The notes under the pieces: model-generated | What the model was told of the DNA's origin: nothing | The model's input: only the letters and a program-made list of their open reading frames with translations | Database searches by the model: none | Source: a virus | Taxonomy: Duplodnaviria; Caudoviricetes | DNA: 55,362 nucleotides | Strand: one strand, 5' to 3' | Virus record (IMG/VR): IMGVR_UViG_3300030329_004008 | Span: 1 to 55,362 of that record | In this document: positions 1-55,362 of the stretch, one piece after another | Layout of the letters: each line of letters starts with the position of its first letter | Numbering within the stretch: position 1 is the stretch's first letter | Position numbers and translations under genes: made by a program

Positions 1-127
1 TTCCTTTCGCCCTTCTGCTGTTGAGGCATTTCACGAGTCTCTAGTAATTTATTCAGCTTTGGTATAGTAAGCTTGTTATAATCTACAGGCTCTTCAGTTA
101 GCTCGTCTGGATTTAAAAATCCTGGAG
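1..127 (+). repeat. Terminal direct repeat, copy 1 (circular overlap)
   Basis: 1-127 matches 55236-55362 except T49 vs G55284. Confidence 0.97.
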
Positions 128-2015
128 GAAGATCTTCTGTTTCATCCTGCTGCTCAAGTGCAGCTTGCTCCATTTGTAATTCAATTTCTCTCTCTTCTTC
201 TGTAGTGAGGTCAGGATCTGTTTGTTTTGGCTTACGAACTGGAGCGACTTCAGTAGCCTCTATATTTAAAAGTCTCTTAGCCTCTTCTACATAGGCTGGA
301 TCTGTATATCTTGTTGAAAATGCATCTAAAAATTCTTCATCATTTACCCCAAGTTCTCCAAGGATAGCTCTTCCTTTACGCTTTAATGCACCAAGGACTG
401 CTCCTGGAGTTCTATCTGATTGTCCTATATTTGCAGCTAATTGTTCTTCTTGATCAACCTCTCCAAGCCTAAGGACAGTTTTTAGCAATATACTATCCCT
501 ATCTATATCTGGAGCAACAACCTCAGGTCTAATATCTGGCTTATCAATCTGAAGATCCTTTAATGATTTAGCAGATCTAGGCTTTCCACCTAAAGCTTTA
601 ACAGCTAAACCCACTGCAGCTTCACCAAATGCACCTTTACTAGCAGTCTCACCAAGCTCTGTTTTAAATTCTGCCATTGCCTGAGTGTGACCTTTATAGC
701 CTGATTGTATAGCTTTTTGAGCTAATAGCTGTAAAGATTCCTCTCCAGCCCCTCCAGCACCTATAACTGCGGCAGATTCAATCCAGTCTACTATGCGCTT
801 ACTGCGCATCTTCTTAATTCTAGAACCAATATCACTGATACTCTGACCTGTTTTTTGAGCTAAGGCAACAGTCTTAGGATGCTTATATATAAAATCATCC
901 ATCTTAGCAGCCATCTTTTTATAGCCCGAAGTAAATCTTGTTCTATTCCATAGCTGTTGAGCAGGCACTCCCATTGACTTGTTAAGCATGAGTTTCAAAC
1001 TAGTACGCTCTATTGCCATAGCAGGTCCCATGTAGGCTAGGGCATTTGCATTAGCCATAGAAGAAGCATTCTCTATGCTATAACCACGATTTCTAAAATA
1101 TTCAAAGCTTTCATTCCATTCATCTGAATATTCAAATATTCCACCAACAGTCATTCCAGTTGTAAGAGCCGCAGAAGGTCCCCCTAGCACGAATCCTAAG
1201 CCAGCAGCACCAAAATTTATAATAGGAGAAGTTAATGCACTGGCAGCCCATGCGCCCATTTGCTTTGCGCTACGCTCCTTCTGTAAGTCTGAAGGACTAG
1301 CATTGTTAAGCCAATGATAATATGCACGATTCTTAGGATCTTGCATATGTTTTTCCATTGCATGCCCGCCATGTTCAGATAACATATTGCTCCACATTTG
1401 CAATGCATCTCCTGTGGTATACCCAGTAACAGGTCTTTTAAATCTGCCTTTCTTATAATCTCTGTATCCTTTATTTATTGCAAGGAAAGCCCCATCTGGA
1501 TTAGCATTCCATAAGCTCTTCCCTACCTTGCCCCAATCTACATAAGCTAAGGATTCTGGTATAGCAAATACATTTGCAGCAGTCTGAGGTAGCGCTGAGG
1601 GTAATGCAGATATAGCTCTCCATAATTGGGTTTCAGCTTCCTGTGTTATAACCTGTCCCCAACCTGGCTCTTTTACGCCAGCATCATAAAGAAATTCAAG
1701 AGGAACATCATCGCTCAATCTGTGCCTTAAAGCAGCTCTCTCTGGATGATTTTCATCGAAAATGTATCCTAATACAAATTGCTGATCTGTAATATTCTCT
1801 GGCTGGGTAAAGACTAATTTTTGCTCACCTGCGAAAGGAGTAACCCAATCGTAATCAGTACCTCCTCGTATTTGAGAGGCAAATTCCTCATAAGACATAA
1901 GTCCTGGAGCTAAGGAAAGCTTATCAGAAATAGTCTGTTCTTTTTCTAGTAGGGCTTTATACTTATCTGATGCATTTATGAGTGCATTAATCTCGGAAAT
2001 ATCTAGTCTGGCCAT
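1..2015 (-). CDS. N-terminal part (~662 aa before the ORF-track Met) of a giant ~2,791-aa internal virion protein / putative virion RNA polymerase; continues across the junction into 55362-48875
   Basis: ATG at 2015, 1 nt after the stop of 2017..4077, reads MARLDISEINALINASDKYKALLEKE... It is in frame with the ATG at 29 (=55264). The ORF track lists no closed ORF here, consistent with a frame open to the edge. Confidence 0.9.
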   Translation of the reverse strand, partial: MARLDISEINALINASDKYKALLEKEQTISDKLSLAPGLMSYEEFASQIRGGTDYDWVTPFAGEQKLVFTQPENITDQQFVLGYIFDENHPERAALRHRLSDDVPLEFLYDAGVKEPGWGQVITQEAETQLWRAISALPSALPQTAANVFAIPESLAYVDWGKVGKSLWNANPDGAFLAINKGYRDYKKGRFKRPVTGYTTGDALQMWSNMLSEHGGHAMEKHMQDPKNRAYYHWLNNASPSDLQKERSAKQMGAWAASALTSPIINFGAAGLGFVLGGPSAALTTGMTVGGIFEYSDEWNESFEYFRNRGYSIENASSMANANALAYMGPAMAIERTSLKLMLNKSMGVPAQQLWNRTRFTSGYKKMAAKMDDFIYKHPKTVALAQKTGQSISDIGSRIKKMRSKRIVDWIESAAVIGAGGAGEESLQLLAQKAIQSGYKGHTQAMAEFKTELGETASKGAFGEAAVGLAVKALGGKPRSAKSLKDLQIDKPDIRPEVVAPDIDRDSILLKTVLRLGEVDQEEQLAANIGQSDRTPGAVLGALKRKGRAILGELGVNDEEFLDAFSTRYTDPAYVEEAKRLLNIEATEVAPVRKPKQTDPDLTTEEEREIELQMEQAALEQQDETEDLPPGFLNPDELTEEPVDYNKLTIPKLNKLLETREMPQQQKGER

Positions 2016-11448: not shown

Positions 11449-11694
11449 TTACCTTTTCCTTGGTTTTCTTTTAGTCGTTTTAGCCTTTTGTAATACAACT
11501 ACATCAGACTGTGTTTCTAGCAATAACTCCTGCAAAGCATCCAATCTTGCCTGAAGTTTAGACATTTCAATATTGATCCTGTATACTTCTCGATCAAGAT
11601 CGTTTTCCTCATGTACATACTGTTCTAGAGGCTTTATTAGCTTTACTACCTCTTTTAGTATCTTTGGTAATAAAAGTCTTACTACTGTTCCCAT
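11449..11694 (-). CDS. Hypothetical coiled-coil protein with basic tail
   Basis: ORF packing; heptad pattern. Confidence 0.6.
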   Translation of the reverse strand: MGTVVRLLLPKILKEVVKLIKPLEQYVHEENDLDREVYRINIEMSKLQARLDALQELLLETQSDVVVLQKAKTTKRKPRKR

Positions 11695-12487
11695 CTATTA
11701 GTGTCCCCCATATAGAAGTTTTTCCGTCTATTATTTGGACTACATCTACTGTAAAGTCTCCTTCTTCTCCGTAGAAATCTACAATAGCAAATGCATGTCC
11801 CCAATTAGTTATCCTGTTCTTTAGCCAAGCGTTGCTTTCGGCTCTCATATCTTTTAAGCATCCTATTGACCATGCAGCTTTAGGACCATCCATGTGAGTG
11901 GCAGTCATTTGCTGAAGATCATGATGATGGCCATACATAATATTACAACCAAGCTTTCGTAAATGATTTGCAGTATGATACTGTCCTGCATATTGATGCC
12001 CATGATATAGATACAACTTCCCAAGCTTAAGATGAGTACCCATAGCATGGTATTTGTAATTCCTTGACCTGAGGTTAACAACATTTTTAAATGCAAACTT
12101 AGCATACGGATACCGCTTAGTGAATTCATTAACCCAATTATCATGGTTTCCTTCACACATATGCTTTTCTTTGCAATCAATCTTATCCAGAGCTTCATCA
12201 ATAATATCCATCCCCAAATTAACATCAATTATATCATCATTACAGTCATTAAGCATGTATTCTAATGGCGGCTTCTCTCTTCCCTTATATTTAAATCTGG
12301 AAAAATGACTCCATTCTCCTACATCTCCTAAATCTACATATATATCTGGCTTCACCATTTCTATAGCCTGAGTAAGTACATTTATTGCAGCTTTATCGTG
12401 CAATGGAAAGTGCTTATCTGGCGTAATGATTGCCGTTCTAACTAAATTCTTTTTATGTCTGCCCATAATATTCTCCTTAAAACCCAA
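11609..12487 (-). CDS. Calcineurin-like metallophosphoesterase
   Basis: Motifs PDKH, DLGD, GNHD, HGH, GHHH. The true start may be the MGRHKK Met after AGGAG. Confidence 0.88.
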   Translation of the reverse strand: MGFKENIMGRHKKNLVRTAIITPDKHFPLHDKAAINVLTQAIEMVKPDIYVDLGDVGEWSHFSRFKYKGREKPPLEYMLNDCNDDIIDVNLGMDIIDEALDKIDCKEKHMCEGNHDNWVNEFTKRYPYAKFAFKNVVNLRSRNYKYHAMGTHLKLGKLYLYHGHQYAGQYHTANHLRKLGCNIMYGHHHDLQQMTATHMDGPKAAWSIGCLKDMRAESNAWLKNRITNWGHAFAIVDFYGEEGDFTVDVVQIIDGKTSIWGTLIDGNSSKTFITKDTKRGSKANKASRTVCT

Positions 12488-35615: not shown

Positions 35616-36194
35616 ATGATGGGATTTGATTTATACGGACTTAATCCAGTAACTATGTCACCTGATCCTGAAATATCATTAGACGAATTCTTTAATCTTA
35701 ATGAAGAAGAGCGTCAAGATAATATCATAGCTGTCAGTAAATACAGAGATGAAAATCCTGGTGTATATTTTAGAAATAATGTCTGGTGGTGGCGGCCTTT
35801 ATGGGAATATACTTGCAGATTGGCATTTCGTATCTTTGATGAAGACGATATAAAGGCAGGTAGCTACAATGATGGTCATGAAATCAGTAAAGATAAAGCT
35901 GATATCATAGCCAGGAGATTAGAAGACAGTATAGTTAACGGTTTTGCAGAAAAATGGGAGAAAGATAGAAATGCAGAATTAGATAAGATGGAACTGGAAG
36001 TATGCGATTTATGTGAAGGAACAGGAAGCAGGAATAAACCTCCAAAAACAGGCGCTGGTACACATATGGAATGTAATGCTTGTGATGGTAAAGGTAAGAG
36101 AAAAGCATCTGCGACTCACTATCCTTTTTCTGTTGAGAATGTAAGAGAGTTCGCTCGTTTCTGTAAACATTCAGGTGGTTTTTCCATCCGTTGA
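35616..36194 (+). CDS. Conserved phage protein with a DnaJ-type zinc finger
   Basis: YFRNNVWWWRPLW; CDLCEGTG and CNACDGKG; YPFSVENVREFARFC..SGGF. Confidence 0.8.
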   Translation: MMGFDLYGLNPVTMSPDPEISLDEFFNLNEEERQDNIIAVSKYRDENPGVYFRNNVWWWRPLWEYTCRLAFRIFDEDDIKAGSYNDGHEISKDKADIIARRLEDSIVNGFAEKWEKDRNAELDKMELEVCDLCEGTGSRNKPPKTGAGTHMECNACDGKGKRKASATHYPFSVENVREFARFCKHSGGFSIR

Positions 36195-42675: not shown

Positions 42676-43419
42676 ATGCAAACTACACTAGTAAGTAGCA
42701 ATATAGTAGATGAAGGATTCCTTTCTACTATCGAATTACCAGAAAAAACAAAATCATATGTACCAGTATCGCATTCAGACTTTGTCGATAATGTGAAAGA
42801 TATTGCGTCTAGGATGATGCCATCACATGAATTGCATGTAGAGAAGTATGGCATAGCTAGAGATGGTAAGCAAATGTTTGGTACATTAACTTATAAACAG
42901 GTTCTAGATTCATCTTTAAATCCTATTAATGATCTAGGTTTAAGTATAGGAATAAGGAATTCTTATGATAAATCTATGTCATTAGGCATTTGTAGCGGAG
43001 CGTCTGTATTTGTATGTGAGAACCTAATGATGAGTGGCGAAATTGTTGTAATGAGAACGCACAGAGGTCGTATATTAGATGAGCTAAAGGGCTTGATCTT
43101 TAATGCTATAGCCAATGCTGAAGGAAAGTTCCATACATTGCACTCTGATTCACTAGCATTTAAGAGTGAGGATTGCAATAATGATATGGCATTTGGCATG
43201 ATAGGAAGGTTATATGGAAGAGGTGTATTGCGTGAAAGACAATTGCCAGTAGTTAAAAAGGAATGGTTAAATCCTAAACATGAAGCATTTTCCGACAGAA
43301 ATGCATGGGGACTATACAATGCATGTACAGAAGCATTAAAGACTACTCCACCTATGTTTAGAATGAACAATCAGATTAAATTGCATGAACAGTTTAAATC
43401 TGAGTTTGGCATAGCATAA
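42676..43419 (+). CDS. DUF932-like protein
   Basis: YVPVSH, RNSYDKS, VFVCENLM, AWGLYNACTE. Confidence 0.8.
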   Translation: MQTTLVSSNIVDEGFLSTIELPEKTKSYVPVSHSDFVDNVKDIASRMMPSHELHVEKYGIARDGKQMFGTLTYKQVLDSSLNPINDLGLSIGIRNSYDKSMSLGICSGASVFVCENLMMSGEIVVMRTHRGRILDELKGLIFNAIANAEGKFHTLHSDSLAFKSEDCNNDMAFGMIGRLYGRGVLRERQLPVVKKEWLNPKHEAFSDRNAWGLYNACTEALKTTPPMFRMNNQIKLHEQFKSEFGIA

Positions 43420-45350: not shown

Positions 45351-45496
45351 GAAGAAAAGCTACATCAATTAATGATCAATTCTGGAAAGAATCTTATTTC
45401 ATTCATTCCACGCTTGAAGAAGCATTAGAGCAGGAAGTTGATTCAGAAATAATCAGGATATTAAAAAATCCAAATTTGTTTGTAGCTACTAGTTAG
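45323..45496 (+). CDS. Small hypothetical protein, 57 aa (last gene of the plus arm)
   Basis: Manually translated (MDIYNPKKIGRK...); its stop overlaps the convergent gene by 8 nt. Confidence 0.45.
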   Translation: MDIYNPKKIGRKATSINDQFWKESYFIHSTLEEALEQEVDSEIIRILKNPNLFVATS

Positions 45497-48400
45497 CTAT
45501 CTTTTTCATAAGAGCTGGACTTTCTTTAATGATTGCTCCAGTAACAGGCTCTGGCCATAAATAACCAAGCATACCTTTAGCTTTATATTTAGCTGCATCT
45601 TCCTCATTACCTGCAATTAATGCAAATAATGCGAATGCATCGTATAAGAAGCCTGCCCCTACGCCTGCACCAGGTAGAGACCTTATGTGATAAGCTATTA
45701 ATCTCTCGAGATCTTTAGCGTCATCCCATGGATCATCTATATCATCTGACATGGCGATTGCGGCTAGTATTGGTAGCCATATTAATGCAGCTATGGGAGA
45801 TCCTGCGCCTCCTAGATTGCGAGCACCTAAGAGATAAAATGCACTTCTTGCTACATCAGGTAATACTGGTAATACGTACATTGATTGCATTAATCCTTCT
45901 ATTAAGAAGTGAGTAAGAAACCATCTCTTCAGTCTAAGGACCTCAGGTTTTGAATTTGCTAAGACGTCATTGTTTCTCCATATATCTCTAAACATAAGCT
46001 TTATGGTTGCAGACAGTTTATTATCTGCATTAACTGCGTCTAAAGCATTCTTCCATAATTCTACATCAGATGCTGCTTTTTGTGACTTCCATACAGAAAA
46101 CTGACTAAATAAAGATCCCAATGCACCTCTATATGCCTCACCTACACCTTGTCTACTCATGCTAAAATCAAATTGCATATTTGTAGCAAGCCTACCATAG
46201 TAAATGGCCAAATCTCTATCTCGGCCAGTCAATTCCCACATATTACCAGAAGGAATTTCTCCAGCTTTTTGTGCATTTTGCACTCCTAGTATAAAAGAAA
46301 TGGAACGTATATGCTGTTCCATATCGGACATAATTCCTGCCCTACCAAAATGCTTCCTTATATTCCTTACAATATCTTCCCCTCGCTTAGCAAGAATTAA
46401 CATTGAAGGGTTCTCTCTCACCATATCTCTCAATATAGCTTCGTTGTTGATAGCAAAGTTTGTAATTTTATTCGTTATTCTTTGAATCTTTTCCTGCCTT
46501 AATTTGGCATCGAATTGTGAAGCCTCTTCCTGATCTAATACGTTTTCCCACTTTAGCTTTACTCCCCACAGCTTTGTAAGATTCTTCTTCAATATATTTT
46601 CTGCATTTTTAATGCTAGTACCCTTATTCCGTCTATCAAAATAAGATAGATATTCAGCAACCATCTTGTTGATATTATCTCTCTCCATTTCCATTGCCTC
46701 AAGTTCCTTGACAATAGAGTTAGTAAAGAACTCATTAAATAAAGTCACCCCAGACTCTTCAAGCATAGGCGAGAGTGCATCCTTATTTTGGGTATAATAT
46801 TTTGATGCATCTAAAAATGATCCTAGACCTGACTTAACTACTTTCTCAATATTTCCAAAGGCTTGCCTTATAGCGCTAGTAGGTCCAGATAACATTAAAT
46901 TGAGAAATTTTCTATAAATCTTTAAGCCTCTTACCATTCGAGGGTTTATATTTTGATCAGAGAGGTCCATTCCAAACATTAATGATCGTGCATCCTTCCT
47001 TCCCATTGTAGCTTTATATAAAGAGGAGAATGCATCTGATACTCCTGGCATATCTGTCATAGACATGGCCGTTATTAATGCGGCAGTAAGATTGTTTCTC
47101 TCTATGTTACGAGCTGTATGCTCTAAATAAGATCTAAATACACCGCGATCTGTACGAGACTTAAGAACATCAAAGGCATTACTAACATGCTTGAAGTGCT
47201 TAGCTCTAGTACGAGTGACCATTTTGTCTCCATCTAATGCATCTTCATCTGTCTCTAATAACTCTTCTTTCATTGCTTTTTGGTTAGCAATAGACGTCTT
47301 TAATGCATCTTCCTGAGCCTCTAATTTCACTAGTTCATCACCTGTAACAGCTGTTTTCGCATCTTGGATTTGGCTTAAGGCGTATTCCATAGAATCAATA
47401 GCGTCTTCTATAATGAAAACAAACTTTTCTGGCATATAGATATAAGGAAAGTAGAACTTCTTATATGTAGCCATATCTCCCATCATTGGCTTAAATGGTT
47501 GCTCTAACGACCACTTAGTAAATTCATTTTCTAACATTGCTAGCCTGGATATATCTTCATGAGACCATATTATATTCCCCTGCTCATCATGTAGCTTTCC
47601 ATCTACTATAGCCCTTTTCAATTGTTCAACGCTTTTCCCTGGGAAATGAGTCCTTAATGCATTTAATACCCTTAGGAAGCTCTCTTCAGATTGAGATTTA
47701 AAATGCTCAAATGCCTGATCCATAATAACTCTAGCTTCTTGTACGTATTGATCTAATTGTGCGAGCATTGTACTTGTAAGTGGAGGCATATTCATTATCA
47801 TATCTAGGGTATCATATCTCAATCTACCCTTTTGATCTGTCATTTTATTATCTTTTACAGTACCGTGAATATTAGGATCATATCTAAGAGGTACTGGATT
47901 CTGCCATCCGAAAATAACATCTCCACTATCATAACTTTCCGAAGTAGGAGCCCACCATTGATTAATATACCATCCAGCCCCATGCTCATACACTAATCGT
48001 GAAGGCCTACCAGGTTTCTCTTTAGTCATTTTAGCAGCTCTTTTATCATCTACATATTCAACACGACCATGCATCATCCATGTAAATAATTCTACAATTC
48101 TCTGAGCTCCCTGTTCCTTTGTCCTACCACCATAAAATCCTGCAGCTTCCCAAGCGCTTCTTAAATCTCCATCTATATCTGCATGATCATACACCCCTTC
48201 TACTGAATTCATTATACGAGTCATTCCAATGCTCTCATCAGTAGGGTTCATAAATTTATGTATATGTCCAGCTATATTATCAGCAAAGTCCTGTGTAGCT
48301 TTCCATACCTTGTGATATGCACCAGAGTTTTCAGTAAATCTAAGCTTTCTAGTAACACCCCATCCAAGTCTAACCCCTCTATACCATAAATTATCCCATC

Positions 48401-48881
48401 TAGATCCATCAGCACTAGTCCATGCCTCTGTAAATCTTAGATATCTTTTTAAAGTTCCAATAGGTAGCTTATATAGTAATAGCTTTCTCTGTTGAGTATC
48501 TTTATTGATCGCTATTACTTTCTTCTTGAGCATAGGGGCTAAGCTAATAGCATCAGCATGTAATTCTTCGACAATTGGCAGTGCTAAATGCTGGTTAGCT
48601 TCGATAAGCATCCTTATCTTATTAGCTATTTGTTCACGCTCTGGAAGAGATCCCATAATCTTATTTATAGCTTTAGCACGAGATTCTTTATTTCCAAAAG
48701 ATAGCTTACTTCCAATTTTAATGATGGCTTTTGCTATCTTACTATTAGCATATCTAGGATGCTCTGGATCAGCTTCTATAGAGCTATCTACATATTGTTC
48801 AGTTTGTAATTCAAAGCTCTTAGCTTCTGTCTCTATAGCGTTTAATGCTCTAGTGGCTATGTTGCATTTATCCATTAACAA
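45489..48881 (-). CDS. Large putative internal virion protein, 1130 aa
   Basis: Coupled to the RNAP-like gene; LFSQFSVW motif and hydrophobic C-terminal segments like large ejection proteins. Confidence 0.7.
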   Translation of the reverse strand: MLMDKCNIATRALNAIETEAKSFELQTEQYVDSSIEADPEHPRYANSKIAKAIIKIGSKLSFGNKESRAKAINKIMGSLPEREQIANKIRMLIEANQHLALPIVEELHADAISLAPMLKKKVIAINKDTQQRKLLLYKLPIGTLKRYLRFTEAWTSADGSRWDNLWYRGVRLGWGVTRKLRFTENSGAYHKVWKATQDFADNIAGHIHKFMNPTDESIGMTRIMNSVEGVYDHADIDGDLRSAWEAAGFYGGRTKEQGAQRIVELFTWMMHGRVEYVDDKRAAKMTKEKPGRPSRLVYEHGAGWYINQWWAPTSESYDSGDVIFGWQNPVPLRYDPNIHGTVKDNKMTDQKGRLRYDTLDMIMNMPPLTSTMLAQLDQYVQEARVIMDQAFEHFKSQSEESFLRVLNALRTHFPGKSVEQLKRAIVDGKLHDEQGNIIWSHEDISRLAMLENEFTKWSLEQPFKPMMGDMATYKKFYFPYIYMPEKFVFIIEDAIDSMEYALSQIQDAKTAVTGDELVKLEAQEDALKTSIANQKAMKEELLETDEDALDGDKMVTRTRAKHFKHVSNAFDVLKSRTDRGVFRSYLEHTARNIERNNLTAALITAMSMTDMPGVSDAFSSLYKATMGRKDARSLMFGMDLSDQNINPRMVRGLKIYRKFLNLMLSGPTSAIRQAFGNIEKVVKSGLGSFLDASKYYTQNKDALSPMLEESGVTLFNEFFTNSIVKELEAMEMERDNINKMVAEYLSYFDRRNKGTSIKNAENILKKNLTKLWGVKLKWENVLDQEEASQFDAKLRQEKIQRITNKITNFAINNEAILRDMVRENPSMLILAKRGEDIVRNIRKHFGRAGIMSDMEQHIRSISFILGVQNAQKAGEIPSGNMWELTGRDRDLAIYYGRLATNMQFDFSMSRQGVGEAYRGALGSLFSQFSVWKSQKAASDVELWKNALDAVNADNKLSATIKLMFRDIWRNNDVLANSKPEVLRLKRWFLTHFLIEGLMQSMYVLPVLPDVARSAFYLLGARNLGGAGSPIAALIWLPILAAIAMSDDIDDPWDDAKDLERLIAYHIRSLPGAGVGAGFLYDAFALFALIAGNEEDAAKYKAKGMLGYLWPEPVTGAIIKESPALMKKIAN

Positions 48882-51800
48882 TTCCTTTTAAGGATTCTTG
48901 AAAGAGGATCATATGCAACTCTACGAGCTGATTCACTACGTCCTTCAATATCCTTAATCTTTTTATTATATAATTTTAAATACTTGCTCATTAATACAGG
49001 ATCTAACACTGTAAGGTCTGGCTCTGAAGATACTGGAGGCAGATTATTGCGTTGTACTGTGTACATTAGCTTGCCTTGTTGATCCAATTGGGCGAACCCT
49101 CTTAAGAATGCAATAGTTGCTGAGAATTGTCCTAAAGGTCCCATCTCCATATAAGCAGCTCCCCACCAAGAGGTAAATCTAATGAGATCTGGATTATAAT
49201 CCCAAGATACAGCTTCATTATTTTCAGCTATACGCTCCATTATAGATGCATATCCTTCTCCAGTTAGATTCTCACCTTCTCCCTTCGAGTTCCACATTTG
49301 ATTAGCATAAGATGTGCCATCTGCAATACTTTGCTCTAGATCTTTATCAGTAATCTCTTCTCCAGTCAATTCTCTATGATATATGCGCTCATTATCCATT
49401 GCTTCTTGCATTAAAGTATCTATATCTTCTTCAAGATCTGCCATAGATTGCAAGTGCACTGTATTATACACATCCTGCTCATACTCAACTGGGGAGATTT
49501 TATTAGGCTCAGCTAAAGATGCGATACCAGTTCTCTCATCTCCATACCACTGTCTAGCAAATTCTACTGTCACCTCTTCTAATGGAGATAATGTATCATT
49601 AAATTCTACTGAGCTTACTAGACCACTTAGAGCTTCATTTCCATCATACTTATCCATTAAATATCCTTGACGATCATTAATATAGTCTAATAGTTTCTTG
49701 CTTTCCTTTAATAATGATGTAACTGAATGACTATGATCAAAGCCTCTACCTCTACGGATAGTTCTAGTTAATGCACTTATTGATATAATGGGCTTTATTA
49801 AGTCCATATATTCAGTATTATTTTCATTTATTTCAGATTTCCAGTTACCATTTTCATCTGCGATATAGAACAACCTAGATATAAGTTTATCTCTGGAATA
49901 GTTCCATTCAGATAATAACAAATGCTTATGGTTATCTACCGCAGCCTGCAACCAGATTCGTAACTGCTCTTCCATTGTCATTGAATCGTTCATCTCAGGA
50001 AACAATACTTGATCCAGGAGCTTATGAACCTTAATCTGATTGCCATCATTAAGTTTAATTCCATTGAAATTGTGGTTTAGCTGTCCTAATACATTTTGTA
50101 ATGCAGCTATTTGCCCTACAGATCTTTTCCCTACCTGGAACATTTGTGTTAACAATCTAACATTTTCTGCCTTAGAAAGGTCTATCTCTCTAGCCATGCT
50201 TGGAAGTGAAATAGCTTTCATTCTATTAGCAGCCTCTGCATCTAGTAAAAACTGCTGAATACTAGTAGCTAGATCATCGGGAATAAATTCAACCTGTATT
50301 GCATCACCGTCATAGTCACCTTCAAGTAACTTAATAGAGACATTATCTGAAACAATTGCTTGCCCTCCTCTATTATGCAATGCCTTAACTCTTAATACTC
50401 TCGCACCTCCTACGTATGGAACTGGCGACCTGTGTATCAATGTCAAAATCTTTGTGTTCTCAAGCCACTTGTTTATTGCATTTAGACTAAGCTTTTTAGC
50501 CTCATTAACAGTTCCACCATTCTCTTTTGCATAAGCAACATATACTTGATGAGCATTTGTAGCAGCTAATGTGATTTCATCATCATTATGTGTATTGAAA
50601 TAATCTGGAGCAAGATCTACATATGTACCTTTACCATTATTAAGAGATAATGCAGGGGTTATGACCTGTGTTCTTAAAATCTTATTTAACATACCCATAG
50701 CATCAGCATGCATTCCTAATCCTAGCTTAAACTTCTCTAATAATGCAGTGGTCATTGCATGTGGAGAATCTGAATGCACACTCTGTGCAAACTTGAGTAA
50801 GGTAGATGCATTAAATGTATTAGATCCAGTCAGTGTAAATATGCTCTTTAATCGCTCCTTAATTCTTGGCATCATAAAGCCTTTCAAATCATTTACCAGG
50901 TCTGTATCATGAACATAGTTAGTCCATTGCATTCCGAATGTTGCGGTCTTCTTTGGCTCGTGATACTTTATAAGCCCTATTTCCTCACCTGCAATATCAA
51001 TAATCTCTCCAGATTTATAGTTCGATATCTTAGCCTCATCATCTGTCATAAGTATATCAACTTCATTCCTGCCTTCTGCAGTTACTTGATATATCCTGCC
51101 ATTGTCGTCAACTTCTGCTAATAGCTGCCTATTACCATCTTTCCCTATCTTGATAATTTTCATTCCAGCTTCAGGTTCAAACATTTCATGCTTAACAGCA
51201 AGAGATAGATCTGCCTTCCATATAACTGTCTTGAATAGCCTCATTAAAGGATTGCTTCCAAATGCTTCGTGCATATCATTCGTAAATGTACTGCTAATAA
51301 TGGATGCACCATCAGTACGATTCTTATTGCCCATACCAGCTATTATATCCATCATATTTCCTTCATTGCCATTACGGTCAACAAATACTATCTGATTTCT
51401 TTCAGCTTCATTAGTAGCTATTTGCACAGCTTTTGCACCTCTCATAAGAGGGGAAGTGAATACTGGCGTAGTAGCAATCTTGATACGTCTAAATAATTCT
51501 GCACCATTATTAATCATATTTGCTGGCATCAATCTTCTCATCATTTCATATCTAGCAATCTCTCCAGCTAGCCATTTCTGTGAGTATCTTGCCTTGCTTC
51601 TTACATGGTTACCATCCTTGTCAATTCTGTAACCCATAAAGTTAAGCATCTGATCTTCTGTTATAAAGCCACCTACCACTTGAGCTTTCCAATATGCTTT
51701 AATTTGATTTTCATTTCTAGCGATAGACATATGGCGATCTAATATAGGAGCAAACATCATATGCCCAGAATCTCCTCTGGTAGACATAAGAGCTAATCCG

Positions 51801-54800
51801 TGAATTACACCTTGTCTGTCTTCATAAGTAAAGTTATTTAATGCATACACTTGCAACTGCTTAATCTGATCATCAGACAGAACATCTACAAACTTATCGG
51901 TAAATGCCTTGCCATATTTTGTCACTATTTCATATATATCTTTTAGGTTCAAGAATACAGGCTTTTGCATTCCCCACTTCTTATCAGCTTTGGTAGCTTC
52001 ATATATTAAATTCTGATCTCTAGTAGAGTTTGACTTTTCTGTAAAATTACTTTTATTCCTTTTTATTACAAGCTCTCCAGAAGTTCGGTATTCTAAGTTC
52101 CTTCTCCTAGGAGTGATACCAGATGCAGGATTTACAGTAACAGTAGAAGCAGTACGCACAAAGAACTGTTTAATCCTTCTTCTTTCTATAGATCCTGAAG
52201 GAAAATCTGAGTACCTATACCCTGTAGCTACTTGCAAAGGACCTTCACCCCATGCGTCAAAAGCTTCTTGAGGAGTAAGGGTTGGTTGATTTAAGAATTG
52301 CAATACAGAACTCAGTAATGATATCATCTTATTGTGAGGTATATTAATTCCCAGTTCCCTCATGAAGGTATATTCAGTACTAACTCCATGCTTAGCTCTT
52401 ATATCATTATCATTTCCAGGGATAAAGCTTAAATCTTCTTCAACAGCAGCATATATCTCATCAAATGCATCATTGAACTCTTCTCTTGTAGCATAAACAT
52501 CATTCATCGCATGCATTCTTTTTACTATCTTGCCAATCTGAACATGCTGATTAGCCCATACATCAAAAATAGCAGCCATATCAAATGGTATCTCTTCAGC
52601 TAATTTTGCTATATATTTTTTGATATTAAAAGACTTGCCCAGCTTTGTCTGCATTGCATTTAATGCATTGTCAAATATTCTTAAAGCTTGATTCCCAGCC
52701 TCAGTTCCAGGCTCTATCTGTTGATAGTCTATCTGTCCAAGAGACATCTCCTCTGCTGGAATTGTATAATGCATTCTCTGAGGACCTTTGTCTGTTGGGA
52801 TGAAGCGATTGTAATCCCATATATCTTTAAATCTACTATAACTTAATTTAGCTCTAAATGGATCTTCATAATGAGCAAGCTGGACTTGATACCTATTTCC
52901 ATCAGAGCCTACAAAGTCATGCATAATTGGATTCTCTCTTCCCTGAGCCTCTGGGCCAGAAAAGAAGTCCACTAACATAGCTTCGGTGCCAGTCTTAATT
53001 TCTGTCTCTGATATAATATTACCAGCATCATTCATCTTATAATCAAGCTTATAAGTGCCAACAATCTCGTTCTTTGCATTTCTTACATTGTAAGATATAA
53101 TTTTCTTCCCATCTTTTCTGCGCTTAATGTCAGATACTTTATGCCCAGATGGAGGTACAAGGAATGTATCTGTACTAGCTCCTCCTGGTAAGCTAAATGA
53201 ATAAGCCTCGATAGCTCCTTTGAAATGCTTTTTAATTAAGGATATTGCTGATTCTCTAGTTCCTATATTGACAAAATCAAGATCATGCACTACAGAATCC
53301 TTAGGTCTATAGACTGAGCCTTGGGTAGAATAAGCAATACTTCCTGTCAATATAATATCATCTGCAGTACCGATCTTAGTCATAATATCTTTTGCGATCG
53401 GATTCATATCAAAAGCTTCCTGAAAATCTATTAGAACATATCCAGGTTTCTTAGTAGTTGCTACGAAACTTTCATGCTTAAAGGTATTGTCTACAATCTT
53501 GTTAATAGCGGGCTGTATAACGCTCCAATTTGCTCCAGTAAGACTATCTAATACCTTCTGAACAAATACCTTAATACGTTTTAATAAGCTATCGCTAACG
53601 TTTAATTCCTTAGCAAGTCTTTCACTAAAGCCAGACTGTAATAGGTCTTGGAATATTTCCTTAGTAGCTAATCTTAATGCAATCCTACCATTGATATCTG
53701 GATTGTCTTTATATATCTGCTCAATTGCATTCTTATACCTATCAGTGTCCTTTACCGCTTCTCTTATATCGTAAAAATCTTGTGAATAACTAAGCATTTC
53801 TGACAATGCATCTGCCATCACCTTAGATACGTGATTTATATCATGCCTATTTAGATCAACTCTCTTGTTAGCTAGATTTACAAACAGCTCCTGTACGTCA
53901 TTGACTTCAAATCCATAATCAATTAAGAAATTTAACAATCTACTTTGAGGAGAATCATCTTCAAAGCGAGTTAATGGAGTAAATGAAAACTCAAATCCCA
54001 TCTTCTTCCAGAAGTCAATAGAATCTGGATGAGCTATAATATTTATTATCTGCTCACCCCTACCTACCATTACCTCCTTGATTGATTCAAAAAATCTAGT
54101 CCCCAAGCCTTTGCCTCTAAGGTTTTCTGGCACTACAATATTACCAATACGTGACTTGTCAGTGGGATGAGGAGTCCATTTAAGTCCATATTTTTTAACA
54201 AGTTGGTTTAATAGTATCGTAGAAGCAGCTTCATGTTGAGCTCCTTTACGCTTATAAGCCTCTACTGCAATCTCTTCACCAACTTGAAATAGCTGATCAC
54301 CTTCTACAAATTTCTGTGCAATATATTGAGAGGGCCTTCCAAATACTTTCTTGACATGAGCCCAGAACTTGCGAAGGAAATTTTTAACTCTAGCTTTTAA
54401 GCTGCCAGGAGCGTCCTTTAATGCATTAGCATAGTATTCTCCAACATATTGAGTTAACTGCTCCTCAGTCTTCATATCCTGTAATGCTTTTTCAATAAGA
54501 GGATGACCTCTCAATGCTTTAACTAGTATATGAAAATACTCGTGCGGAGCTGTATCTACAGTAGCCTTTCCTTTAGCCCACTCTGCAATAGTATTGAATG
54601 CACGCCCTGCCTGCTCTTCTCCTGAGAGATGGTCAATTATTTGATCTACCTCTTTCCCTGCTATGTTAGGGAAGTCTTCTCTTAGCTTAGCTTTAACCCT
54701 ATCAGCCCATTCCTGTGCATCATCCGCTAAAGGAAGTTTAGTTTCTTTAATGGCTTGATAATCAATGCCCCAATCATGTTTATCCTTCAAGTCTTCAAGG

Positions 54801-55362
54801 TATGCTCTATTTTTTGCAGAACTAATTGACTCTTCCATTAAAGGGGTTGGATTATCTCTAATAAGGTCTAGAACATCTTCTTTAGTGTTTAGTAAGGAAA
54901 CATCCAACCCTCTACCTTGAGCAATTTCTTTTAAATCTTTAAGAGATCTATGCTGATTAGTCTCGATCCAATTCTCTTGACGTCTCTTTCTTTCTTGCCA
55001 TATAGCAGGATGCACACCTTCTGGCGCACCTAATGCATCAATTCTATCAGCTTCTGCCCTTTCAGCATCCATCTTGGCTGCTTCAGCTTCTTCCTCTTGC
55101 TGTGGAGCGGTAAGCTCTGTCTCTTCTCCAAAGATTCTAACCTGACCAGAAACATTAGGCTCTGTGTCTTCATATCCAGGAACCCCAAAGGCTTCTTGCT
55201 CATCTTTTTTCTGAAGCCTACGTACAAGGTCAGCCTTCCTTTCGCCCTTCTGCTGTTGAGGCATTTCACGAGTCTCTAGTAATGTATTCAGCTTTGGTAT
55301 AGTAAGCTTGTTATAATCTACAGGCTCTTCAGTTAGCTCGTCTGGATTTAAAAATCCTGGAG
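48875..55362 (-). CDS. C-terminal part of a giant polyvalent protein: HExxH peptidase + GNAT + Pol-beta NTase + two-barrel (RdRP/crAss vRNAP-like) RNA polymerase
   Basis: HEYFH 54530-54544; RGKGLG 54101-54118; TGS...HDLD ~53276-53347; RTDGASIIS ~51293-51319; HRSP 50423-50434; GDYDGD 50303-50320; AVDNHK ~49925-49942. The frame stays open to the window end. Confidence 0.85.
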   Translation of the reverse strand, partial: PGFLNPDELTEEPVDYNKLTIPKLNTLLETREMPQQQKGERKADLVRRLQKKDEQEAFGVPGYEDTEPNVSGQVRIFGEETELTAPQQEEEAEAAKMDAERAEADRIDALGAPEGVHPAIWQERKRRQENWIETNQHRSLKDLKEIAQGRGLDVSLLNTKEDVLDLIRDNPTPLMEESISSAKNRAYLEDLKDKHDWGIDYQAIKETKLPLADDAQEWADRVKAKLREDFPNIAGKEVDQIIDHLSGEEQAGRAFNTIAEWAKGKATVDTAPHEYFHILVKALRGHPLIEKALQDMKTEEQLTQYVGEYYANALKDAPGSLKARVKNFLRKFWAHVKKVFGRPSQYIAQKFVEGDQLFQVGEEIAVEAYKRKGAQHEAASTILLNQLVKKYGLKWTPHPTDKSRIGNIVVPENLRGKGLGTRFFESIKEVMVGRGEQIINIIAHPDSIDFWKKMGFEFSFTPLTRFEDDSPQSRLLNFLIDYGFEVNDVQELFVNLANKRVDLNRHDINHVSKVMADALSEMLSYSQDFYDIREAVKDTDRYKNAIEQIYKDNPDINGRIALRLATKEIFQDLLQSGFSERLAKELNVSDSLLKRIKVFVQKVLDSLTGANWSVIQPAINKIVDNTFKHESFVATTKKPGYVLIDFQEAFDMNPIAKDIMTKIGTADDIILTGSIAYSTQGSVYRPKDSVVHDLDFVNIGTRESAISLIKKHFKGAIEAYSFSLPGGASTDTFLVPPSGHKVSDIKRRKDGKKIISYNVRNAKNEIVGTYKLDYKMNDAGNIISETEIKTGTEAMLVDFFSGPEAQGRENPIMHDFVGSDGNRYQVQLAHYEDPFRAKLSYSRFKDIWDYNRFIPTDKGPQRMHYTIPAEEMSLGQIDYQQIEPGTEAGNQALRIFDNALNAMQTKLGKSFNIKKYIAKLAEEIPFDMAAIFDVWANQHVQIGKIVKRMHAMNDVYATREEFNDAFDEIYAAVEEDLSFIPGNDNDIRAKHGVSTEYTFMRELGINIPHNKMISLLSSVLQFLNQPTLTPQEAFDAWGEGPLQVATGYRYSDFPSGSIERRRIKQFFVRTASTVTVNPASGITPRRRNLEYRTSGELVIKRNKSNFTEKSNSTRDQNLIYEATKADKKWGMQKPVFLNLKDIYEIVTKYGKAFTDKFVDVLSDDQIKQLQVYALNNFTYEDRQGVIHGLALMSTRGDSGHMMFAPILDRHMSIARNENQIKAYWKAQVVGGFITEDQMLNFMGYRIDKDGNHVRSKARYSQKWLAGEIARYEMMRRLMPANMINNGAELFRRIKIATTPVFTSPLMRGAKAVQIATNEAERNQIVFVDRNGNEGNMMDIIAGMGNKNRTDGASIISSTFTNDMHEAFGSNPLMRLFKTVIWKADLSLAVKHEMFEPEAGMKIIKIGKDGNRQLLAEVDDNGRIYQVTAEGRNEVDILMTDDEAKISNYKSGEIIDIAGEEIGLIKYHEPKKTATFGMQWTNYVHDTDLVNDLKGFMMPRIKERLKSIFTLTGSNTFNASTLLKFAQSVHSDSPHAMTTALLEKFKLGLGMHADAMGMLNKILRTQVITPALSLNNGKGTYVDLAPDYFNTHNDDEITLAATNAHQVYVAYAKENGGTVNEAKKLSLNAINKWLENTKILTLIHRSPVPYVGGARVLRVKALHNRGGQAIVSDNVSIKLLEGDYDGDAIQVEFIPDDLATSIQQFLLDAEAANRMKAISLPSMAREIDLSKAENVRLLTQMFQVGKRSVGQIAALQNVLGQLNHNFNGIKLNDGNQIKVHKLLDQVLFPEMNDSMTMEEQLRIWLQAAVDNHKHLLLSEWNYSRDKLISRLFYIADENGNWKSEINENNTEYMDLIKPIISISALTRTIRRGRGFDHSHSVTSLLKESKKLLDYINDRQGYLMDKYDGNEALSGLVSSVEFNDTLSPLEEVTVEFARQWYGDERTGIASLAEPNKISPVEYEQDVYNTVHLQSMADLEEDIDTLMQEAMDNERIYHRELTGEEITDKDLEQSIADGTSYANQMWNSKGEGENLTGEGYASIMERIAENNEAVSWDYNPDLIRFTSWWGAAYMEMGPLGQFSATIAFLRGFAQLDQQGKLMYTVQRNNLPPVSSEPDLTVLDPVLMSKYLKLYNKKIKDIEGRSESARRVAYDPLSRILKRNC
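55236..55362 (+). repeat. Terminal direct repeat, copy 2
   Basis: Matches 1-127 with a single mismatch. Confidence 0.97.

Follow-up and report, generated by a model that had tools for sequence, protein, structure and literature searches.

The DNA window analysed here comprises all 55,362 nucleotides (nt) of IMG/VR record IMGVR_UViG_3300030329_004008, from a virus of the Caudoviricetes (Duplodnaviria), an uncultured marine podovirus. Its minus strand carries a giant gene for a protein of 2,791 amino acids (aa). For the C-terminal third of this protein, a high-confidence model predicts the fold of a single-chain two-barrel RNA polymerase (RNAP), so the phage probably brings a polymerase of its own into the host and begins gene expression with it. 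The first-pass annotation of the window had proposed such an enzyme and likened it to the RNA-dependent RNA polymerases (RdRPs) of eukaryotic RNA interference (RNAi). Both proposals were supported by structure searches with Foldseek, in which the nearest solved structures were gp66 from phi14:2, a crAss-like phage, and the cellular RdRP QDE-1.

Predicted fold and active site of the polymerase module

A profile search of 1.84 billion cluster representatives (50%-identity clusters) found 466 representatives of the family at E ≤ 1e-3; 375 passed a cut-off of 1e-10 and 242 one of 1e-30. We gathered 13 relatives from the protein collection and 25 IMG/VR contigs, and aligned the module in 34 sequences, namely the 25 giant open reading frames (ORFs) from IMG/VR, eight of the 13 collection relatives (P0003–P0010) and the window sequence. 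Identities to the window sequence in this alignment were 22–63%. From it, and without templates, AlphaFold2 modelled the C-terminal 990 aa with a mean predicted local distance difference test (pLDDT) of 89.5 and a predicted template modelling score (pTM) of 0.83.

Foldseek returned 56 PDB matches for this model at E ≤ 1e-3, and the 12 top matches listed were all single-chain two-barrel RNAPs. The best was phi14:2 gp66 (6VR4; E = 2.2e-10, template modelling (TM) score 0.43 on the query). Next came QDE-1, with six entries between E = 1.3e-9 and 7.3e-9 (TM at best 0.39/0.40 across 942 columns), then the non-virion RNAPs of P23-45 type, gp64/gp62 (~1e-6), and RDR2 of maize and Arabidopsis (~3e-6). 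The Foldseek probability was 1.00 for each of these four groups. Lower in the list stood bacterial beta' chains, dozens in number, as well as the enzymes of AR9 and phiKZ (2e-4 and weaker). The model appears about equally distant from gp66 and QDE-1, which the data do not rank. In BFVD, two unnamed viral proteins matched over nearly the full length (E = 4e-65 and 5e-55, TM 0.84–0.86, 24–28% identity). A graded series of further unnamed viral proteins came after them, and then Crassvirales proteins (6e-10 to 1e-5), phage proteins named 'RNA dependent RNA polymerase', phi14:2 and P23-45. As an internal contrast, a model of the middle region of the giant protein (pLDDT 51.2, pTM 0.27) gave no Foldseek match at E ≤ 1e-3 and no RNAP, with weak GNAT and SnoaL/NTF2 rows. 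The middle region is therefore assigned neither a peptidase nor a nucleotidyltransferase fold.

The elements of the model, in residue numbers of the 990-aa modelled module (as in D511 below), are as follows.

48878..51847, minus strand: polymerase module, 990 aa (residues 1802–2791 of the giant protein), predicted two-barrel RNAP fold (AlphaFold2 and Foldseek)
50966..51436, minus strand: first barrel region, beta-rich, model residues 138–294, with D179-G180, K206, K219 and D270-E271-K273
50648..50932, minus strand: helical connector between the barrels, model residues 306–400, from secondary structure
50288..50629, minus strand: second, beta'-like barrel (double-psi beta-barrel A, DPBB-A), model residues 407–520, with R473-x-P475 and the metal loop E-G-D-Y-D-G-D
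50069..50170, minus strand: candidate bridge helix, 34 residues, model residues 560–593, directly after the catalytic barrel

The order of these elements is the order described for gp66 and QDE-1, in which the connector is reported to span ~140 residues (10.1101/2020.03.07.982082). The metal-binding DxDxD loop of the superfamily is present in the beta'-like barrel as DYDGD. Residues 138–294 may represent the beta-like barrel (DPBB-B), judging from element order and the conserved lysines. In the superfamily, this other barrel is described as supplying two basic residues (PMC7824862), and the invariant K206, K219 and K273, which sit in the first beta-rich region, are candidates for them. The helix at 560–593 is a candidate bridge helix, and the C-terminal part that follows it in the model is largely helical.

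A scripted search of the translation found all nine motif strings listed by the first-pass annotation, in the order it had given, between 49925 and 51319 on the minus strand.

51293–51319, minus strand: RTDGASIIS
51188–51202, minus strand: LAVKH
51026–51052, minus strand: LMTDDEAKI
50924–50938, minus strand: FGMQW
50423–50440, minus strand: LIHRSP, which holds R473-x-P475
50387–50401, minus strand: RVLRV
50291–50326, minus strand: LEGDYDGDAIQV, the catalytic loop motif, with DYDGD at 50303–50317
50105–50119, minus strand: VGQIA, inside the 34-residue helix
49925–49951, minus strand: LQAAVDNHK, with Q634 conserved among 127/131 family proteins and D638 among 131/131

The motifs go beyond chance matches, as the invariant columns of the 34-sequence alignment fall within them. 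These columns include D179, G180, K219, D270, E271, K273, Q307, R473 and P475, as well as E509, D511, D513, D515, Q634 and D638. Conservation was also counted in a wider set of 159 re-aligned family proteins, which included the 150 best of the 466 representatives; denominators are the proteins that cover a site. The loop aspartates D511 and D513 were each kept in 129/129 proteins and D515 in 127/128, R473 in 125/126 and P475 in 127/127. In the first barrel region, D179 and G180 were kept in 109/109, K206 in 105/105, K219 in 114/114 and K273 in 115/115. G573 was invariant among the 34 sequences and kept in 97/123 proteins of the wider set. Such near-perfect retention of active-site residues at identities down to 22% argues for catalysis.

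Position 4 of the metal loop was Gly in 104/129 family proteins, His in 19/129 and Ile in 2/129. The window sequence has Gly, in contrast to the DFDID of gp66, which the first-pass annotation had set against the GDYDGD of QDE-1. His at this position marks a sub-clade with the loop E-G-D-H-D-H-D (L017, L019, L020, L022, L024 and L025). The gp66 study gives crAss-like phages as the sole known case of departure from Gly at this position (10.1101/2020.03.07.982082).

The giant gene, its partner and the phage genome

The ORF at 48875–55264 on the minus strand encodes 2,129 aa, and its reading frame stays open up to the last base of the window. The window termini (1–127 and 55236–55362) form a 127-nt direct repeat with 126/127 positions the same, so the record is a complete genome of ~55,235 bp that is either closed into a circle or terminally redundant. 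CheckV gives the record a completeness of 100%, and IMG/VR classes it as linear, presumably due to the single mismatch in the terminal repeat. Fusing window positions 2015 to 1 with 55235 to 48875 on the minus strand yields the full product of 2,791 aa. The largest gene of the genome is thus split by the arbitrary start point of the record. A 2,791-aa database protein is identical over the ORF part, and its residues 1–671 are the translation of window positions 2015 to 3; this exact protein is recorded on 13 contigs. The motifs stand in the order given by the first-pass annotation, but the gene is larger than the ORF visible in the window; its start is not at 55264, the frame crosses the junction, and the true product has 2,791 aa.

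1..2015, minus strand: giant gene, N-terminal part, ATG at 2015, joining 55235 across the junction
48875..55362, minus strand: giant gene, C-terminal part, 2,129 codons and stop; 55236–55362 repeats 1–127
54530..54544, minus strand: HEYFH (HExxH), the majority consensus being DTAPHExxH among close homologs and FHExxHP among distant homologs
53984..54172, minus strand: GNAT acetyltransferase domain, C-terminal half (PF00583 at E = 1.4e-4, above the family cut-off)
51848..52762, minus strand: conserved pre-polymerase region, ~300 aa, in all close homologs and partly in distant ones, modelled at low to medium confidence
45489..48881, minus strand: partner gene, 1,130 aa, overlapping the end of the giant gene by 7 nt; last late-strand gene

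The N-terminal ~450 aa of the giant protein are conserved family-wide, including distant members, with invariant G, E, E, Q, G and G columns. A tblastn search of the N-terminal 671 aa against GenBank phages gave no match. The HExxH segment matched no Pfam peptidase family, and no MPTase or LPD Pfam family was found in the protein. When this region was compared by hhalign with the HExxH segment in phi14:2 gp076, P was 0.02, in one of six comparisons. Between the GNAT half and the pre-polymerase region, ~400 aa at 53000–54000 on the minus strand (ORF residues ~430–830) are missing from the homolog majority consensus; this stretch is a lineage-specific insert by that comparison, with no Pfam match and low AlphaFold2 confidence.

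In relatives, the accessory domains vary and include GNAT (5/13 and 2/14), SAP (2/13 and 1/14) and FtsK-gamma (2/14), and the variable middle part also carries HeH, SF1 helicase, HATPase_c or cpYpsA domains. The module formed the C-terminal portion of the open frame in all 25 IMG/VR loci, and the 19 ORFs not cut by the end of a locus encode 2,256–4,199 aa. Among 67 family proteins of at least 2,000 aa, the module ended at most 60 aa from the C-terminus in 53 and was clearly internal in two. A further 23 family proteins of 1,000–2,000 aa hold a nearly full module and are either fragments or true short forms. With GNAT, HExxH and RNAP regions, a late-strand gene and a varying architecture, the giant protein has the pattern of polyvalent proteins, which phages are reported to pack and deliver with their DNA, the N4 virion RNAP among them (Iyer et al. 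2017, PMC5512222).

A homolog of the partner lay directly downstream of the polymerase gene in 22 of the 25 loci, at 20–26% identity, and the other three loci were cut. The partner protein matched no known family and, by tblastn, no GenBank phage; BLASTP against phi14:2 gp076 gave E = 1.1. As a lead, the ESM Atlas places it near clusters with 'large polyvalent protein-associated' LPD38/LPD39 domains.

In transcription order, the late minus strand holds genes for the small terminase, the large terminase, the P22-type portal and the SU10-type capsid protein. Later on this strand come tail fibre and tailspike proteins with S74 chaperone domains, a metallophosphoesterase, several unknown ORFs, the giant gene and the partner gene. 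The giant gene starts 1 nt past the preceding ORF of the tail/tailspike block. The metallophosphoesterase (11609–12487, minus strand; phrog_221, E = 2.5e-21) lies inside the structural block, as does its phi14:2 counterpart, to which BLASTP found no similarity (E = 2.5).

We confirmed the capsid protein that the first-pass annotation had called DUF5309-like (PF17236 SU10_MCP, the former DUF5309, E = 2e-20), and the P22-like portal (PF16510 P22_portal, 6e-45). In line with the lack of a DNA polymerase noted there, DNA_pol_A and DNA_pol_B gave no match. The proposed separation from Crassvirales also held, as the terminase, capsid and portal are not crAss-like and the genome has 55.2 kb vs ~100 kb. 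The nearest terminases in GenBank phages were those of Roseobacter, Lentibacter, Methylophilales and Vibrio podoviruses (24–27% identity), the capsid matched only Bruynoghevirus and one roseophage (CRP-810), weakly, and for the portal BLASTP found nothing similar in phi14:2 (E = 0.98). Rpb1 domain 2 (Rpb1_2) gave no match, and no tRNA genes were found in the genome.

The early arm on the plus strand (~32.2–45.4 kb) holds small ORFs and genes for Sak4, a single-stranded DNA-binding protein (SSB), a primase-helicase, a Gam-like protein and a DUF932 protein (42676–43419, plus strand; 7e-5, at the cut-off). A 192-aa protein (35616–36194, plus strand) has a match to a DnaJ-type CxxCxGxG zinc finger at 1.7e-4, below the cut-off. 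In related loci, the Gam/primase-helicase/SSB/Sak4 arm converges on the partner gene, and the early arm was present in marine metagenome runs. Shine–Dalgarno (SD)-like 4-mers were found at −20 to −4 of 32/42 ORFs vs 14.6% of random positions, and 5-mer cores at 23/42 vs 6.5%. This enrichment argues for a host that uses SD-led initiation. SD-led initiation is little used in Bacteroidota.

Proposed delivery with the virion and its alternatives

The predicted fold, the active-site residues, the late-strand position, the gene pair and the family distribution are each supported directly by the analyses above. We consider it rather likely, by analogy with characterised phage enzymes, that the 2,791-aa product is a late polyvalent protein whose C-terminal ~1,000–1,300 residues form a competent RNAP that is packaged, ejected and used to transcribe early genes. 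The virion RNAP reading draws on the late-strand position of the gene, the pairing of giant and partner genes, the variable accessory domains and the lack of any other detected polymerase. Judging from gp66 and P23-45 gp96 and from gene position, the protein would have polymerase activity on a DNA template, resist rifampicin, travel in the capsid and act specifically on early genes. The gp66 protein is reported to be virion-borne and rifampicin-resistant and to transcribe early genes (10.1101/2020.03.07.982082), and P23-45 is described as having a virion RNAP fused to a structural protein (PMC10770324).

In the proposed sequence of events, the giant protein would be made late, with the tail genes, packed into the capsid with its conserved 1,130-aa neighbour, and ejected together with the DNA. 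It would then transcribe the plus-strand early/replication arm without the host RNAP, after which the host RNAP would transcribe the late arm. The variable middle part, with the HExxH segment and GNAT, may act on DNA or host targets at entry, and the accessory domains and the partner protein may act in ejection or takeover. The partner is a candidate for co-packaging, and together with the conserved N-terminal domain it is a candidate component of an undescribed ejection apparatus.

The closest parallel is phi14:2 gp66 (PDB 6VR4; locus Phi14:2_gp077). Both enzymes are single-chain two-barrel RNAPs within proteins of more than 2,000 aa, both genes lie at the end of the structural strand and are followed by another gene of more than 1,000 aa, and both systems have variable accessory domains and an HExxH protein or segment in the same block. 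In phi14:2, the order is a large structural gene, the RNAP gene, a large structural gene with HExxH and then a strand switch, but the neighbours of its RNAP gene have no detectable homology to those of the present phage. The loop is DFD(I/V)D in gp66 and D-x-D-G-D here, and the module is central in gp66 whereas it is C-terminal here. The genomes also differ in size (~100 kb in phi14:2 and 55 kb here), and the present phage differs in its SU10-type capsid, P22-type portal, strong SD use and lack of a detected DNA polymerase.

Two-barrel single-chain RNAPs also occur in P23-45, as the tape-measure-fused virion enzyme gp96 and the non-virion gp64 (gp62 in P74-26). However, P23-45 belongs to the siphoviruses and carries the module N-terminally in its tape measure, and the structural match of these enzymes to our module is weaker than that of gp66 and QDE-1. 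They are placed together, apart from the QDE-1/gp66 pair, in PMC10770324. N4 gp50 is likewise a giant late multidomain podovirus protein with a polymerase, an HExxH region and variable effectors, and it is delivered with the DNA, but its polymerase is of the unrelated T7 type.

Several results weigh against the virion RNAP reading, the first of which is that Pfam, PHROG, PDB and hhalign searches tied the family to no characterised RNAP at the sequence level. The control for PF05183, the Pfam RdRP family, gave a signal among 14 named genomes only in Bacillus subtilis, and there below the family cut-off; we take this match to be YonO. The sole hint came from PHROG, where phrog_2987 ('RNA polymerase beta subunit') covered the catalytic loop at E = 0.022. 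PDB profile searches gave eight chance matches with the 34-sequence module and none with a 24-sequence catalytic sub-alignment, and no RNAP in either case. The hhalign comparison of the family profile with an alignment of seven crAss sequences (gp66 and six Crassvirales) gave E = 0.14–0.15. The TM-scores to known enzymes are modest (0.39–0.43), with root-mean-square deviations of 11–17 Å, and the lysine, bridge-helix and trigger-loop assignments were made from element order and secondary structure. In the N-terminal 671 aa, we found just one weakly hydrophobic segment and no known ejection-protein family. Many small early ORFs were without annotation. The PF00940 search was uninformative, as its control was silent, so that the absence of a T7-type RNAP was read from the PHROG scans. 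No repeat family or conserved promoter motif marked the early arm, and sigma70-like sites numbered 61 vs 61.9 ± 7.8 expected. Finally, this phage and its relatives are known here from sequence and predicted structure alone. We gave the promoter result no weight against the model, because the early transcripts of phi14:2 likewise are reported to share no common upstream motif (10.1101/2020.03.07.982082).

An unlikely alternative is that the module is an active RNAP that acts after de novo synthesis, either as a non-virion enzyme like YonO or P23-45 gp64 or in replication priming or R-loop formation. The same fold is described outside the virion in P23-45 gp64 (PMC10770324) and in YonO, packaging is read here from gene position and analogy, and DNA polymerase A or B was not found in this phage. 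However, the gene stands at the end of the late strand with the tail genes, and an enzyme first made late cannot start the programme. The fusion of the module behind ~1,800 aa of non-polymerase sequence, with an N-terminus conserved family-wide, also speaks against a free enzyme, and a role in priming meets the objection that the phage already has a primase-helicase gene.

Still less probable is an effector that works on RNA or single-stranded templates, producing for instance double-stranded RNA or decoy RNA against host defence, and that is not the early transcriptase. Such a role would suit the accessory domains, which are those of conflict-type polyvalent proteins, as well as the dual DNA- and RNA-dependent activity reported for QDE-1 (PMC9508822) and the transcription of single-stranded and denatured double-stranded DNA by gp66 in vitro (10.1101/2020.03.07.982082). 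We found no specific support for it, and transcription of early genes is the role of the only characterised virion enzymes with this fold.

Least probable of all, and by our estimate very improbable, is a polymerase-derived structural or ejection module without polymerising activity, for which the His at loop position 4 in 19/129 relatives and a gp66 crystal form with an active site incompatible with Mg binding (10.1101/2020.03.07.982082) could be cited, but the family has retained the three aspartates, R-x-P, three lysines and Q-A-A-V-D almost without exception at identities down to 22%, a pattern difficult to account for if there were no catalysis, and gp66 is reported to be active despite its odd loop (10.1101/2020.03.07.982082).

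Relation to known polymerase families and significance

We rejected membership in the gp66 family of crAss-like phages, as there was no significant sequence similarity and loop position 4 is mostly Gly, and membership in the Pfam RdRP family, as PF05183 was silent. PF05183 gave no match in the protein at E ≤ 1, none in the whole window at E ≤ 10 and none in 13 + 14 homologs at E ≤ 1e-3. No PHROG RNAP family matched at E ≤ 1e-3, and a phmmer search of the PDB with the whole ORF yielded nothing beyond GNAT and noise. As no sequence method aligned the family with RdRPs, the one-to-one matching of the nine motifs to RdRP landmarks in the first-pass annotation is putative. One hhalign alignment below the threshold sets R-x-P...D-x-D-G-D on the crAss YRIP...DFDID and is not significant, and the pairwise comparison with gp66 gave E = 0.21 on an irrelevant stretch. 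In 50,697 GenBank phage records, tblastn with 1,275 aa of the protein found no match, while gp66 as the query found 125 records; megablast with 24.9 kb also gave no match. A pattern scan of the genomes of 185,579 species returned 400 pattern matches and no relatives, which fits a strictly virulent phage, and a single-protein scan of viral contigs found no relatives.

The likeness to QDE-1 and RDR2 extends to their being single chains with Gly at loop position 4, and the QDE-1 loop reads DYDGD. They differ from the present protein in that PF05183 is silent here and in its phage setting and fusion within a giant protein. Besides the fold, the one further link to RdRPs is a lead from the ESM Atlas, which gave a viral cluster annotated as RdRP at 0.87.

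The kind of enzyme is not new, as crAss-like phages, P23-45, YonO-like prophages and the FP_oengus group are all reported to have single-chain two-barrel RNAPs (10.1101/2020.03.07.982082; PMC10770324; 10.1101/842583; PMC7824862), and 23 two-barrel families were counted in 2024 (PMC10770324). Novelty at the family level is likely but unproven. The family proteins were named 'hypothetical protein' or had no name in the databases searched, and we found no description of the lineage in the literature, where the family list in the figure and supplement of PMC10770324 was not part of the comparison. Taken further, it is a tentative possibility, which we hold to be doubtful as a whole, that abundant marine podoviruses, which are non-crAss, SD-using and probably do not infect Bacteroidota, have their own injected family of D-x-D-G-D RNAPs, outside the published families and as near to the RNAi polymerases as the crAss enzymes are. 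If this is true, the candidate phage ancestors of RdRPs would come to include phages that infect other bacterial phyla, in keeping with the proposed proto-mitochondrial route.

In the sources available to us, virion two-barrel RNAPs have been shown experimentally only in crAss-like phages, Thermus phage P23-45 and jumbo phages, and, according to the proposal of Drobysheva et al., the eukaryotic RNAi polymerases descend from a phage enzyme of this type. The present family would be a further one, unrelated to these in sequence, and offers 466 representatives, compact marine podoviruses of ~50 kb, a different virion module and a canonical catalytic loop. If confirmed, it would provide a smaller enzyme for biochemistry (990 aa, with a high-confidence predicted model) and an extra branch for reconstructing the origin of RdRPs, and the injection of a cellular-type polymerase would be a recurrent strategy of phages and not a peculiarity of the crAss-like group.

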